Notes under the pieces: model-generated
Database searches by the model: none
Told to the model about the DNA's origin: nothing
What the model saw: only the letters and a program-made list of their open reading frames with translations
In this document: positions 643 to 5,459 of the stretch, one piece after another
Position numbering within the stretch: the stretch's first letter is position 1
Layout of the letters: the number at the start of each line of letters is the position of its first letter
Assembly (NCBI GenBank): GCA_038826135.1
Contig: JAWBON010000076.1
Location: forward strand, 1-5,459
Length of the DNA stretch: 5,459 nucleotides
Reading direction: 5' to 3'
Source: Candidatus Odinarchaeota archaeon
GTDB lineage: Archaea > Asgardarchaeota > Odinarchaeia > Odinarchaeales > Odinarchaeaceae
Position numbers and translations under genes: made by a program

Positions 643-683
643 CTGACACTTATTCGAGATTATTGAAGCGGATGTGTTTATTT

Positions 684-1991
684 ATGTCTAATTTGATGCG
701 TGAAGCCCGCAGCGGAAACACTAATGATCTGCTGGTTAAAATAGCCAGAGATGAAGGGGTGGCGGCTGAGAAGCTTACAAGACTAGTAGCTGCAGGTAGG
801 GTTGTAATAGTTAGAAATTTAACCCGCTCTAATGTGTCTCCTATAGGTATAGGGGAGGGTTTAAGAACAAAGGTTAACGCGAATATCGGGACATCCTCGG
901 AGGTTATTGACTATAAACTAGAGGTTGAAAAAGCTAAGATTGCTCAAAAATACGGCGCGGACACAGTGATGGATCTCAGCACTGGTGGGGATATAGGTCT
1001 TGTGAGAAGAGAGATTATAAAAGCGGTTAATATCCCTGTGGGGACGGTTCCAATTTACGAGGCTGCTATTCAAGCTGTTAAGAAGAAGAACGCTATTGTT
1101 GAAATGGATGAAGATATAATCTTCAATACCATTCTTAAGCATTTAAAGGATGGTGTTGATTTTATAACGGTGCATGTTGGTGTCACTAAAGAAATAGTTG
1201 AACATTTAAAGGCGCATCCGCGTCTTCTAGGTATGGTTAGCAGGGGAGGCGTATTCCACGCTTCATGGATTCTCCATAATGAGAGGGAAAACCCCCTATA
1301 CGCTAACTTTGATTACCTGCTCGAACTATCCAAAGACTATGATATAACTCTAAGCTTAGGCGACGGGTTAAGACCAGGATGTATCGAGGACGCTACAGAT
1401 TGGGCGCAGATACATGAATTATTAACGATATCGGATCTTGTTAAGAAAGCTTGGGACGCTGATATTCAAGTGATGGTGGAGGGGCCTGGGCATATCCCGC
1501 TTAATCAAATAAAATCTAATGTGTTACTTCAAAAAACCCTGTGCAGGGGCGCCCCATTCTATGTCTTAGGCCCGCTGGTTACTGATATAGCACCTGGATA
1601 TGATCATATTGTAAGCGCTATCGGCGGAGCTTTAGCAGGTCTGTATGGGGCTGACTTTTTATGTTACGTAACCCCCTCTGAGCATTTAGCTATTCCAACT
1701 GAAGACGAGGTTAAAGAGGGTGTTATAGCCTCTAAGATTGCAGCTCATGCTGTTGACGTAGCTAAAGGAAACGTTAAAGCTTTAAAACAGGATTCAGAAA
1801 TGGCTAAGGCTAGAAGAGATCTTAACTGGGAGAAAGAATTTAAACTGGCTTTAGACCCTGCAAAAGCTAAGGAAATCTACAGCCGCGTTAAGGTTAAGAG
1901 TGAAGCCTGTACAATGTGCGGGGAATACTGCGCTGTTAAACTGCTTTCAAAATATCTTAATCTCGATGTTGATAAAAAACCTAGATGCTAA
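684..1991 (+). CDS. thiC: Phosphomethylpyrimidine (HMP-P) synthase ThiC, short archaeal type, radical SAM enzyme
   Basis: Family motifs: KVNANIGTS, GADTVMDLSTGGD, PVGTVPIY, GVDFITVHVGV, VSRGG, ENPLY, SLGDGLRPG, VMVEGPGH, GAPFYVLGPLVTDIAPGYDHI, LCYVTPSEHL, KIAAHAVD, and the C-terminal CxxCxxxC [4Fe-4S] motif CTMCGEYC. I moved the start from the track's TTG 663 to ATG 684 because MSNLMREARSG matches the usual archaeal ThiC N-terminus (MTQxExARxG) and has an SD-like element upstream. Stop TAA 1989-1991. The paralogs BzaA/B/F cannot be fully excluded. Confidence 0.88.
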   Translation: MSNLMREARSGNTNDLLVKIARDEGVAAEKLTRLVAAGRVVIVRNLTRSNVSPIGIGEGLRTKVNANIGTSSEVIDYKLEVEKAKIAQKYGADTVMDLSTGGDIGLVRREIIKAVNIPVGTVPIYEAAIQAVKKKNAIVEMDEDIIFNTILKHLKDGVDFITVHVGVTKEIVEHLKAHPRLLGMVSRGGVFHASWILHNERENPLYANFDYLLELSKDYDITLSLGDGLRPGCIEDATDWAQIHELLTISDLVKKAWDADIQVMVEGPGHIPLNQIKSNVLLQKTLCRGAPFYVLGPLVTDIAPGYDHIVSAIGGALAGLYGADFLCYVTPSEHLAIPTEDEVKEGVIASKIAAHAVDVAKGNVKALKQDSEMAKARRDLNWEKEFKLALDPAKAKEIYSRVKVKSEACTMCGEYCAVKLLSKYLNLDVDKKPRC

Positions 1992-2526
1992 ATATTATTA
2001 ATCCTATATCTTCAGAGCTTGGGTTTTCAAAAATTTTATGTATCCTAAAATTATTCTCGTCTAAAATAACTTTAATTTTTTCTAAGTTAAAGCTCTTTTT
2101 TAGAGCGGATAGAATAACCCGGCCATTAGGTGCAATGATTCTTCTAACCTCTTTTATAAAACACGCTTGCCCCTCCAGATTTTGCAAAACTGTAAAGGAG
2201 CATATTTGTTCAGCCGTGCAATCTCTTACAGGCAGATGCTCCACATCCCCTATTATAAAATTCTTGTAAAAATGACGTCTCTGCAAAGCTATTTTAGTCA
2301 TCTCAGGAGAGATATCTATTCCAATATATCTTAATTCCCGTAATTTTTTACACTTAAGGACCAGCGCTGTCCCGCTTCCAAGATCGAAAAGCAACCCGCT
2401 CTCCGGTAAATAATTTGAAACCATATTAAACTTTACGCCTTGAATCTTACCGTATCTCCTATCATAGTAGAGGGCGCTTCTATTATAATCCTCTTTAACA
2501 ATCAGTTTTTTACACATTTTCACCAC
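1981..2526 (-). CDS. Class I SAM-dependent methyltransferase (Methyltransf_11/UbiE-BioC-like fold), substrate unknown
   Basis: N-terminal Y...A..YD..Y segment (YNRSALYYDRRY), motif I LFDLGSGTA, acidic motif II YIGIDISPEM, IGDVEHLPVRD, AEQICSFTVLQNL, and EVRRIIAPNGRVILS. The start is ambiguous (GTG 2526, GTG 2523 or ATG 2517). Stop TAG at 1983-1981. Confidence 0.85.
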   Translation of the reverse strand: MVKMCKKLIVKEDYNRSALYYDRRYGKIQGVKFNMVSNYLPESGLLFDLGSGTALVLKCKKLRELRYIGIDISPEMTKIALQRRHFYKNFIIGDVEHLPVRDCTAEQICSFTVLQNLEGQACFIKEVRRIIAPNGRVILSALKKSFNLEKIKVILDENNFRIHKIFENPSSEDIGLIIFSI

Positions 2527-2536
2527 TATTTATTCA

Positions 2537-3352
2537 GTGACCTTTATGATAATTGATGATTCGTCTTCAGATAATGGTAAAGTCGAGATTATTAATAAAA
2601 CTAATTTGAAAGATTATTTCCCATACTTGGAGGAGCGTTTATCAAAGAATCATACGCTTTTGATAGTGGGTGTTTTCAGTGTTCACTACGAGGGTAGGGC
2701 TAGTTCAAACATAGGCTTCGGTGAACGTATTCTTATTATTAAAAAAGATAAGTCTGTGTTAATTCATCAGGAGAGAGGGGTATCCCCTATAAACTGGCAG
2801 CCGCCTGGTAACTTAATTCACGCCATGATGAATAATAAAAAAATAGTTTTAAAAATAATTAGGAGGAGGCCTCCTGAAATCCTGTTTATACAGTTTAATA
2901 AAATTTTTTTAATAGCGTGTCTCAGAATCCAGGATACAGCGGAGTTCATTATGGATGCTAGTGAAGAGCAGATACAGGAGGCTATAATTAGGAAGCCTGA
3001 TCTATTATTTAAAGGATTTAAACCCGTCATCTCCGAGAAGCATATTAAACCAGGGTTTATGGATATATACGGTTTTGATGTTGAAGGTAACCCGGTTATT
3101 GTAGAATTAAAAAGGAATCCAGCGACCAAGGAATCTATTATTCAACTGAAAAAATATGTTGATTCATATTCCTCCCCTGTTGCGGGTAGAAAGGTTAGAG
3201 GGATTATTGCCGCACCTGGTATAAGTAAAAGCGCCGAGCTTATGTTGAAAAAGCTGGGTTTAGAGTTTAAAAGAATCGACCCGCGTGAGTGTGTAGAAAT
3301 AGTTAAAAGATATAAAACAAGTAAACTTACAGATTATTTTTCAACGGTTTAA
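2537..3352 (+). CDS. nucS: Endonuclease NucS / EndoMS (mismatch-specific endonuclease)
   Basis: N-terminal domain motifs VHYEGRASS, GERILIIKKDKSVLIH and PINWQPPG. The C-terminal PD-(D/E)xK nuclease motifs are GFMDIYGFD...IVELKR, the QxxxY motif (QLKKY) and VRGIIAAP. Start is GTG 2537 or ATG 2546; stop TAA 3350-3352. Confidence 0.93.
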   Translation: MTFMIIDDSSSDNGKVEIINKTNLKDYFPYLEERLSKNHTLLIVGVFSVHYEGRASSNIGFGERILIIKKDKSVLIHQERGVSPINWQPPGNLIHAMMNNKKIVLKIIRRRPPEILFIQFNKIFLIACLRIQDTAEFIMDASEEQIQEAIIRKPDLLFKGFKPVISEKHIKPGFMDIYGFDVEGNPVIVELKRNPATKESIIQLKKYVDSYSSPVAGRKVRGIIAAPGISKSAELMLKKLGLEFKRIDPRECVEIVKRYKTSKLTDYFSTV

Positions 3353-3394: not shown

Positions 3395-3400
3395 AGGTGA
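3395..3400 (+). promoter_or_regulatory. Shine-Dalgarno site (AGGTGA) for the gene at 3407
   Basis: Classic archaeal AGGTGA, 6 nt upstream of ATG 3407. Confidence 0.7.
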
Positions 3401-3406
3401 ACTTTA

Positions 3407-3889
3407 ATGGCTCGCGATAAAACTGAAATAGAGAAGCTGTTGGACGAAGGTATAAAACTGGAAGAGACGATTGTTAGTAGGGCTGAGCGCACGGTTAAAG
3501 ATGTTAAAAACCCGCTCATCCGTGAATTAGTATCTGGTATTGCTTTAGACTCTAAGAAGCATGCTAACATGCTGCAGGGTTTAAAAGATTTGCTTGAGAG
3601 TAAAACACCATTCATAGGTGTTGAAGAGCGAGACACTCTTAGTAATGATATTAAACAGCATATAACGCTGGAGAGTAAAGCTATAGAGAAATATTCAAAA
3701 GTTTTAGACAGTGTTGATAAGCATGAAATGCAGCTTATTTTAAGCTATCTCATAGAGGATGAGAAAAGACATCACCAGCTTCTTAAGAGAATTGAAAAAT
3801 GGATAATTGAAGCGCAGACCTATACCGAGGAGGAATGGTGGGATATTATGTGGAAGGACGCGCTTTTCCACGGATCCCCGATGGGTTAA
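3407..3889 (+). CDS. Ferritin-like / rubrerythrin-like four-helix-bundle protein (160 aa)
   Basis: Two ungapped internal repeats offset by 70 aa. Each has an LE helix (E19, E89) followed 29 aa later by D-x-x-x-H (DSKKH 48-52; DEKRH 118-122), the ferritin-like superfamily pattern. Strong SD; stop TAA 3887-3889. Confidence 0.85.
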   Translation: MARDKTEIEKLLDEGIKLEETIVSRAERTVKDVKNPLIRELVSGIALDSKKHANMLQGLKDLLESKTPFIGVEERDTLSNDIKQHITLESKAIEKYSKVLDSVDKHEMQLILSYLIEDEKRHHQLLKRIEKWIIEAQTYTEEEWWDIMWKDALFHGSPMG

Positions 3890-3904
3890 TCTCCTCTTTA
3901 TACT

Positions 3905-3935
3905 TTCTATTATTAATAGAATAGAATGTTTTTTT
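3905..3935 (+). terminator. Putative terminator between the convergent ferritin-like and atpA genes
   Basis: Inverted repeat TTCTATT-ATT-AATAGAA (3905-3921) followed by a T7 run (3929-3935), 15-45 nt after the stop codon. Oligo-T tracts are the established archaeal intrinsic termination signal. Confidence 0.45.
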
Positions 3936-4005
3936 AGCTGTCTGGTTGCTGTAAGGAGTATTCAACTGGTGGTTATTAAATTTGATACCTCGGGGTTTCG
4001 TGGGC

Positions 4006-5459
4006 TTATCTTTTTATATGCATTGCTAAATGGATGAACTGCTCGTTAATATCTTTATCTATTTGATCGAATTCAGCATTCATTTTAGCCTTATCCTCGT
4101 ATGGTATGATCTTCATCCTAGCTATTTTTTCAACGACAGGTAGATCCAGTATTTCTCTAATTGTAACTCCCTTATCCACAGCGTCTCTCATCTTCTCATA
4201 GAAGGTTATTATCGCTTTAAGCATTCTATACATTTTATAAAGTGGACTGTAAGTATCAATCGGGTGTAGGGCGCTTTGCTGAAGATAGTCTTCTCTAATC
4301 ATTCTCGCAGCTTCAAGAATAGCCCTCTCAGACTCTGGGAGCGCATCAGGTCCGATTAATTGAACTATCTCTGTTAATTTCTCCTCCTCTTCTAGAAGCG
4401 TCATAGCTTTCTCCCTGAGCTTATTCCACTCAAGGCTGATATTCTCATCATAGTATTTTTGAAGGGTTTCAAGATACAGTGAGTAACTGTTAAGCCAGTT
4501 AATAGCTGGGAAATGTCTTCTTCTAGAAAGATTAGAGTCTAAAGCCCAGAATGTTTTAATTATTCTAAGAGTGGCTTGCGTGACCGGCTCTGAAAAATCT
4601 CCTCCAGGAGGGCTTACAGCACCTGTTATTGTAGCTGAACCCACTCTCGGCTTGGAACCTATAGTTGTAACTCTTCCAGCTCGCTCATAGAATTCAGCTA
4701 GTCGACTGGATAAATAAGCCGGATACCCTTCCTCGCCTGGCATTTCTTCCAATCTACCGGATAACTCTCTAAGAGCTTCAGCCCACCGAGATGTTGAATC
4801 AGCCTGAAGAGCTACATCATAACCCATATCTCTGAAATACTCCGCCATAGTTATAGCTGTATAAATACTAGCCTCTCTGGCCGCTACAGGCATATTAGAA
4901 GTATTAGCTACTAAAACAGTCCTGCTCATAAGAGGCTCCCCTGTCCTAGGATCCTTATAAGTGGGGAATTTTTCAAGAACCTCAGTCATCTCATTACCCC
5001 TCTCCCCACACCCAATATAGATCACAACCCTAGCATCGCTCCACATAGCCAGGCTATGGAGAGTAACTGTTTTTCCAGTACCGAAACCTCCTGGTATAGC
5101 CCCTGTACCTCCTTTAGCCATGGGGAATAGTGTATCTAAGATCCTCATTCCAGTGAGCATCGGCAACTCTGGCTCCAGCTTCTCCTTAAAAGGCCTCGGC
5201 CTCCTAGCAGGCCATTTCTGCAACATCCTTACAGCTGTCTTCTCACCATTAGCCTCAACATATGCTATGGGATCCTCTACACTATACTCACCCTCGGGAG
5301 AGATCTCAATAAGCCTACCACTAACCCCGTGTGGAACCATGATCCAATGTCTTATAAGCGGGGTCTCATCAACATAGCCTATGATATCACCGGGCCCCAC
5401 CTTATCGCCAGGCTTTAACTCTTTCGACGGGGTGAACACATACTTCCTATCCCTCGGAA
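4006..5459 (-). CDS. atpA: A/V-type ATP synthase catalytic subunit A (5'-truncated by the window edge)
   Basis: Walker A GGFGTGKT (5091-5068), [25 protein letters not shown], Walker B region [46 protein letters not shown] and [10 protein letters not shown]. The frame stays open to the edge (..[10 protein letters not shown]), so the track's GTG at 5439 is not the real start and roughly 100 N-terminal residues are missing. Stop TAA 4008-4006. Confidence 0.97.

Follow-up and report, generated by a model that had tools for sequence, protein, structure and literature searches.

The atpA gene at the end of contig C76 from a metagenome-assembled genome (MAG) of the Asgard archaeon Odinarchaeum consists of two parts with different ancestries, and the contig is, in all likelihood, an inter-genome assembly chimera of Odinarchaeum and a Sulfolobales-type archaeon rather than the carrier of a natural hybrid gene. 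Two lineages meet at a breakpoint within the gene, to either side of which the native allele occurs in the same bin and in the same metagenomic run, the depth of the assembled sequence steps down at the join, and the foreign gene exists independently elsewhere.

Gene content of the window

The window, that is, the whole stretch of DNA analyzed here, is contig C76 in its entirety (5459 nt), one of the 105 contigs of a MAG of 1.26 Mb with 38% GC, an estimated completeness of 93% and contamination of 0.65%. The features that are relevant for the analysis are listed in Table 1. The 3' ends of thiC and of the methyltransferase gene, which are encoded on opposite strands, share 11 nt (positions 1981-1991), and no ORF of at least 100 codons is present in the AT-rich stretch of 660 nt, with 29-33% GC, at the start of the window.

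Table 1. Features of the window and the native N-terminal part of atpA on contig C66
Feature	Positions	Strand	Remarks
thiC	663-1991	+	
Methyltransferase gene	1981-2526	-	Convergent with thiC
NucS/EndoMS endonuclease gene (nucS)	2537-3352	+	Pfam PF01939, PF21003; second synteny anchor
Rubrerythrin-like gene	3407-3889	+	Pfam PF02915; convergent with atpA; synteny anchor
atpA	5457 to stop at 4006	-	Frame open at the contig end
Native Odinarchaeum atpA, codons 163-483 and stop	4006-4971	-	Rest of the nucleotide-binding domain and C-terminal domain
Crossover interval, codons 154-162 (G N E M T E V L E)	4972-4998	-	Identical or nearly so in both parents
Foreign terminal piece, atpA codons 1-153	4999-5459	-	Sulfolobales-MAG (Thermoproteota) type; runs off the contig end
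Native atpA N-terminus	G000:C66:5576-6301 (L002 1162-1887)		Stops 6 nt past the intein insertion site

By its domain set, the product of atpA is the catalytic subunit A of the A-type ATP synthase: PF16886 (ATP-synt_ab_Xtn), PF00006 (ATP-synt_ab) and PF22919 (ATP-synt_VA_C) are all detected above the cut-offs. The gene on this contig is without approximately 110 N-terminal residues, and the N-terminal beta-barrel domain, PF02874, is absent for the sole reason that the contig ends. The reading frame is uninterrupted across the join, and the Walker A motif GGFGTGKT is present.

Two lineages within one reading frame

The foreign piece spans the barrel-sandwich domain and the P-loop and extends up to ...IYIGCGER. 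A protein database search started with residues 1-150 identifies, as the top match, the protein P0002 from a 'Sulfolobales archaeon' MAG (GCA_035559775.1), with 95% amino acid identity, ahead of a graded clade with 88-79% identity. The gene for P0002 (locus L018) is 92% identical to window codons 1-150 at the nucleotide level, and beyond codon 171 the identity drops to 64%. Its codon usage (AGG 39 and AGA 13; GAG 50 and GAA 1; GC3 of 0.54) follows the same habit as that of the foreign piece. The identity of this piece to the three Odinarchaeum congeners, G001, G002 and G003, is 55-65% for nucleotides and 60-64% for amino acids; for residues 1-180, the identity to G002 and G003 is 64%, no higher than to other families. 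In the maximum-likelihood tree, the N-terminal part falls within the Sulfolobales-MAG clade, with support of 100/98. A donor was not found within the class of the host, where the seven genomes from two genera are all 58-61% identical to the piece, and therefore the donor belongs outside this class. The Sulfolobales-type donor possesses the usual F-E-A-B-D-...-K ATPase cluster.

The remainder of the gene is native. Residues 186-483 show 94% amino acid identity to the three congeners and to Candidatus Odinarchaeum yellowstonii, which is retrieved by a protein search with these residues. The nucleotide identity of the native part is 82-93% to the congeners but only 64% to the P0002 gene, and the C-terminal part is located within the Odin clade of the maximum-likelihood tree, with support of 100/99.

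The two parts also differ in codon usage. The segment 4921-5457 (179 codons) has a GC content of 0.495 and a GC3 of 0.497, with 12 AGG and a single AGA, and 15 GAG and a single GAA, whereas for 4006-4920 (305 codons including the stop) the respective values are 0.407 and 0.334, with 16 AGA, 3 AGG and 3 CGN codons, and 18 GAG and 12 GAA. In thiC, AGG accounts for 4 of the 20 arginine codons and GAG for 13 of 29; across the MAG, AGG makes up 27% of the AGR codons and GAG 46% of the glutamate codons, with a median of 0.36 for GC3. In a background set of 2112 windows, each 179 codons long and taken from MAG ORFs of at least 200 codons, a GC3 of 0.497 or higher is reached in 0.14%, a GAG share of 0.93 or higher in 0.09%, and an AGG share of 0.92 or higher in none. 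Such values are rare enough for the codon switch to be considered real, beyond chance; a recount reproduces all the figures that had been reported for it in the earlier note.

A donor-versus-host codon log-likelihood leads to the same segment: the 5' segment of atpA scores 14-19, compared to a MAG mean of -12.4 (standard deviation 5.9) and a next-best score of 6.5. The scan with this statistic, which covers ORFs of at least 200 codons so that short pieces at contig ends may escape it, detects no donor-like segment in the MAG beyond contig C76. Contigs C59 and C84 contribute windows rich in GAG and AGG to the background set, yet do not rank high by log-likelihood. The other genes of C76 and the 3' part of atpA have host-like codon usage.

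The breakpoint

There are 492 positions in the gene at which the donor can be told apart from the three congeners. On the 5' side of the breakpoint, C76 carries the donor-type base at 143 of the 157 informative sites, and on the 3' side, the native-type base at 302 of the 335. The maximum chi-square over the 492 sites is 307, a value that is equaled in none of 2000 permutations. Aligned by codons with P0002 and the three congeners, C76 has the AGG codon at 4999-5001 as its last donor-only site, and native-only sites begin at 4984/4969-4974. The crossover stretch between them, GGT AAT GAG ATG ACT GAG GTT CTT (GA), amounts to about 24-27 nt that are the same, or almost so, in both lineages, the host and donor bases in it being deduced from relatives and from Logan contigs.

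Thus, the two halves, when searched and placed in trees separately, lead to two different lineages, and the chi-square value together with the trees upholds the main proposal of the earlier note, namely, that atpA is a mosaic of two lineages. The same applies to its view that the 5' part is the foreign one and crenarchaeal (here, of the Desulfurococcales/Sulfolobales type), which agrees with the P0002 match, the dissimilarity to the congeners, the non-host codon usage and the tree, and to its assignment of the 3' part to a Euryarchaeota/Asgard-like form, the Asgard type being borne out by the protein search and the tree. The breakpoint that it placed at about 4920 has to be moved: both the chi-square analysis and the codon alignments put that position 55-75 nt too far toward the 3' end of the gene, and the conserved block named there is already on the native side. 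The earlier placing was due to two AGG codons, at 4945-4947 and 4921-4923, which fall in sequence that is of Odinarchaeum type at the protein level.

The native N-terminus on a second contig

The native N-terminal part of the gene is found in the same MAG. Contig C66 ends with atpE-atpF-atpA, where atpA is represented by residues 1-242 and the last letters are ...GGFGTGKTV. This piece displays host codon usage (AGA 8 and AGG 0; GC3 of 0.34) and 88-92% amino acid identity to the congeners. It overlaps the atpA of C76 by 131 codons, over which the two are only 55% identical, so that an unrecombined, native copy of these 131 codons is present in the genome.

In all three congeners, including G002 with its closed chromosome, there is one atpA, preceded by atpF-atpE and followed by the rubrerythrin-like gene and nucS. 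The rubrerythrin-like protein of C76 shares 81-85% of its amino acids with the product of the gene directly downstream of atpA in each of these genomes. The gene order of the congeners matches the flanks of C66 and C76 combined, and therefore these contigs represent the two sides of one locus. The 5' part of atpA has one match in G002 and one in G003; the two matches in G001 are the halves of a single intein-split gene. In the trees, the N-terminal part from C66 and the C-terminal part from C76 are each sister to the Odin sequence P0125, with weak support (90/54 and 86/58, respectively). C66 stops about 27 nt (codons 132-140 in the window numbering) short of the native loose end in run X1, described below.

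The atpB gene of Odinarchaeum is located apart from atpA, at G000:C5:29885-30526 in the MAG and at G002:C1:598139-598723 in G002, where atpA is at approximately 683456-685200. In this closed genome, the distance between atpB and atpA is about 86 kb, and atpA is followed by the convergent rubrerythrin-like gene. Given that atpB is distant from atpA, the genes for the A-ATPase are dispersed in this genus of Asgard archaea.

A polymorphic intein site in atpA

The atpA gene of G001 contains a 529-aa intein (ORF residues 241-769; L015, G001:C1:571500-576500), which begins with CVLPNTEV, ends with IFHN, has a middle portion of homing-endonuclease size and is inserted in the P-loop at GTGK/TV. An intein at this site is absent from G002, G003 and C66, and the presence in one of the three congeners but not in the others makes the site polymorphic within the genus. 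In the more distant Asgard genomes G004, G009, G017 and G029, the atpA ORFs are split at the same place. A tblastn search with the G001 intein against the whole MAG, conducted with an atpA intein in mind, detects no close copy. Intein-like ORF segments are found on contig C9 (G000:C9:18430-20787, minus strand), with 24-33% identity to the G001 intein and E-values from 1e-12 to 2e-7; presumably, these are one or more inteins in another gene of the MAG.

Representation of the two parts in metagenomic runs

The metagenomic runs were analyzed as Logan contigs, and the contigs of four of them (X1, X4, X8 and X10) were aligned to the window. Run X1 is a hot-spring metagenome that contains 0.90 of the sampled words and, because of this share, appears to be the source run. 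A 683-nt contig from X1, with a depth of 6.49, fits positions 4355-5019 with 3 mismatches and then departs from the window with TATGATTATATTCGCATC. The reverse complement, GAT GCG AAT ATA ATC ATA, encodes D-A-N-I-I-I, which is the Odinarchaeum sequence (ADANIII in G002), where the window reads DARVVI.

Only two contigs from X1, of 183 and 247 nt, cover the foreign part. The donor-type contig begins at 4996 and overlaps the native contig by only 24 nt. The depth is 6.5-7.0 over 3400-5019 versus 2.3-2.6 over 4996-5437, a step that is coarse given that Logan reports the mean word depth of a contig rather than per-base read depth. The stretches of X1 without coverage (5179-5190 and 5438-5459) carry no evidential weight. 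A contig that would bridge the join is not found in any of the four runs, which, given that Logan contigs drop rare variants, is no proof against recombinant molecules.

For the stretch 4300-5459, about 0.44 of the sampled words also occur in 19 further runs, which come from 12 other studies. Runs X4, X8 and X10 contain the foreign part only, at about 99% identity (4949-5459, with 5 mismatches), and their contigs diverge from the window beyond approximately 4949, into the donor's own 3' continuation. In X4, the foreign piece is part of a 20-kb contig with a depth of 481; X8, which comes from the same study as X1, also carries the donor piece with its own continuation. The donor atpA fragment (4949-5459) is near-identical in hot-spring and 'lake water' metagenomes of these 12 other studies. 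Its recurrence across studies, combined with the depth of 481 in one of the runs, suggests that this uncultured Sulfolobales-type archaeon is widespread and sometimes dominant.

Probable origin of the hybrid gene

A misjoin between two genomes is the best explanation of the mosaic. The identities and the trees assign the two sides of the join to different organisms; the join lies within a stretch of about 24-27 nt, close to the word length of an assembler, that is identical or nearly so in both parents; the coverage steps down in X1; and among the Logan contigs no sequence spans the join, while the continuation of each parent is present, that of the host on C66 and that of the donor in X4, X8 and X10. 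The foreign piece is located at the very end of the contig and is the only donor-like segment among the MAG ORFs of at least 200 codons. We infer that the assembler produced the join. The route could be as follows. In a hot spring populated by Candidatus Odinarchaeum and by a co-resident Sulfolobales-type archaeon at about one third of the host depth, the atpA paths of host and donor would share a node of the de Bruijn graph, which corresponds to the stretch of about 24-27 nt. If k was small, or upon graph simplification, the walk would leave the host path for the donor path of lower coverage, so that some 460-470 nt of foreign atpA (4999-5459) would be appended to the end of C76, where the contig stops, and the true 5' part of the host gene would be left stranded on C66, ending in the P-loop. 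With such a short shared stretch, a misjoin is possible only at a small k (e.g., 21), through graph simplification or through scaffolding heuristics.

The earlier note had left two explanations standing, a metagenome assembly chimera and a genuine in-frame cross-lineage replacement, and had named the lack of spanning reads combined with a coverage step as the mark of an artefact. Both these signs are seen at the contig level, and the native N-terminus on C66, the loose native end in X1 and the depth step all favor the chimera.

The replacement would be a real and very recent homologous exchange between phyla in a sub-population of Odinarchaeum, with DNA of the Sulfolobales-type archaeon taking the place of the 5' part of atpA through a crossover in the common 24-nt stretch, and with C66 representing the unrecombined strain. 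Such an exchange is compatible with a join that keeps the frame, falls in a block that both lineages conserve and is part of an uninterrupted AtpA with three Pfam domains, and the contig-level data are compatible with rare junction-spanning molecules. It is nevertheless very unlikely. The same bin and run also contain the native allele, to either side of the breakpoint (C66 and the loose end in X1), no contig in the four runs bridges the join, and the depth falls from about 6.5-7 to 2.3-2.6. The foreign part shares about 99% identity with the gene of a donor that lives freely elsewhere, its codon usage is completely unameliorated, it is located at a contig end, and it is absent from all three congeners. 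A 24-nt patch of identity flanked by sequences that are 55-65% identical is, moreover, a very poor substrate for homologous recombination. Finally, a hybrid catalytic subunit would have to fit the B, E and D subunits of the host. It is similarly improbable that a minority strain exists with a hybrid atpA whose N-terminal approximately 260 residues, including the P-loop, were recently captured from the co-resident Sulfolobales-type crenarchaeon, which would be a recombination between phyla within the catalytic subunit of an essential enzyme, perhaps in connection with the P-loop intein site.

A specific version of such a connection, in which the cut of a homing endonuclease was repaired from a foreign, intein-free template with co-conversion of the flanking extein, can be assigned only a minimal probability. 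The replaced tract does include the insertion site GTGK/TV, which is occupied in G001; the atpA ORFs of G001, G004, G009, G017 and G029 are 1096-1169 aa long; and C66 ends 6 nt after the site. However, C66 reads GKTV at this point, intein-free and of the native type, the X1 contig has the native extein downstream (DANIII), and the MAG has no close copy of the G001 intein. The foreign tract, instead of being short and centered on the site, reaches the contig end, which is at least 390 nt upstream of it. The arguments against a real junction hold equally for this version. Least credible of all is a second atpA paralog in the genome, or mis-binning of C76 from another organism, which the two overlapping atpA fragments in the MAG might suggest, given that the C-terminal part of the C76 atpA and its neighbors belong to Odinarchaeum by identity and synteny, that the other C76 genes use host codons, that the closed chromosome of G002 has a single atpA and that a paralog would not change lineage in the middle of the gene.

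Implications and comparison with known systems

Interpreted as an assembly chimera, C76 lends no support to a natural hybrid ATP synthase in Odinarchaeum. Its value lies, modestly, in data quality. A deposited Asgard MAG contains a partial AtpA in which the first approximately 153 residues are crenarchaeal, and these residues are missed by the standard contamination metrics (0.65%). AtpA is a common phylogenetic marker, and a chimeric version of it could distort single-gene trees, yield false calls of horizontal gene transfer and seed artefactual 'mosaic' proteins in databases. The reliability of Asgard MAGs is disputed in the literature, and anomalous phylogenetic behavior of ribosomal proteins from Asgard MAGs has reportedly been described in one paper. 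The present case provides a curation flag for one such MAG and a warning for Asgard phylogenomics in general. The remedy is to trim positions 4972-5459 and to join C66 to C76 over the gap of about 27 nt.

Transfer of the catalytic subunit of A/V-type ATPases is a known phenomenon, exemplified by the archaeal-type ATPases of Thermus and Deinococcus. As in those bacteria, the phylogeny of the catalytic subunit on C76 conflicts with that of the host. However, the cases of Thermus and Deinococcus involve whole genes or operons that are fixed in their lineages and adapted to the codon usage of the host, whereas the foreign part of C76 consists of only the terminal 460 nt, is unameliorated and absent from three congeners, and coexists with the native allele in the same sample. 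The P-loop intein site of the archaeal A-ATPase subunit A, known as vma-1b (a term that occurs in PMC4760082 and PMC4071816), provides the second comparison. The affected region of C76 includes the insertion site, which is occupied in the congener G001, as would be the case for co-conversion at this site, but an intein is absent from both the window and C66, and the foreign tract is not centered on the site. The atpA of C76 is neither a case of horizontal transfer of an ATPase nor one of intein-driven extein conversion.

Inter-genome chimeric contigs, in contrast, are a well-known class, of which C76 is a member. These are misjoins at sequences shared by co-occurring organisms, and they are the targets of tools that check for misassembly and chimerism, such as metaMIC, DeepMAsED and GUNC. 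Like other members of this class, C76 has two parents from one sample, a join in a universal gene, at a short stretch that is conserved, a coverage step and a terminal foreign piece, with the true continuation left behind at the end of a different contig, C66. Unlike the usual cases, the parents of C76 come from different phyla (Asgard and Thermoproteota), and the stretch that they share is only about 24-27 nt long. Because the parents are so distant and the shared stretch is so small, this misjoin is unusually 'clean', being in frame and invisible to marker-gene estimates of contamination.
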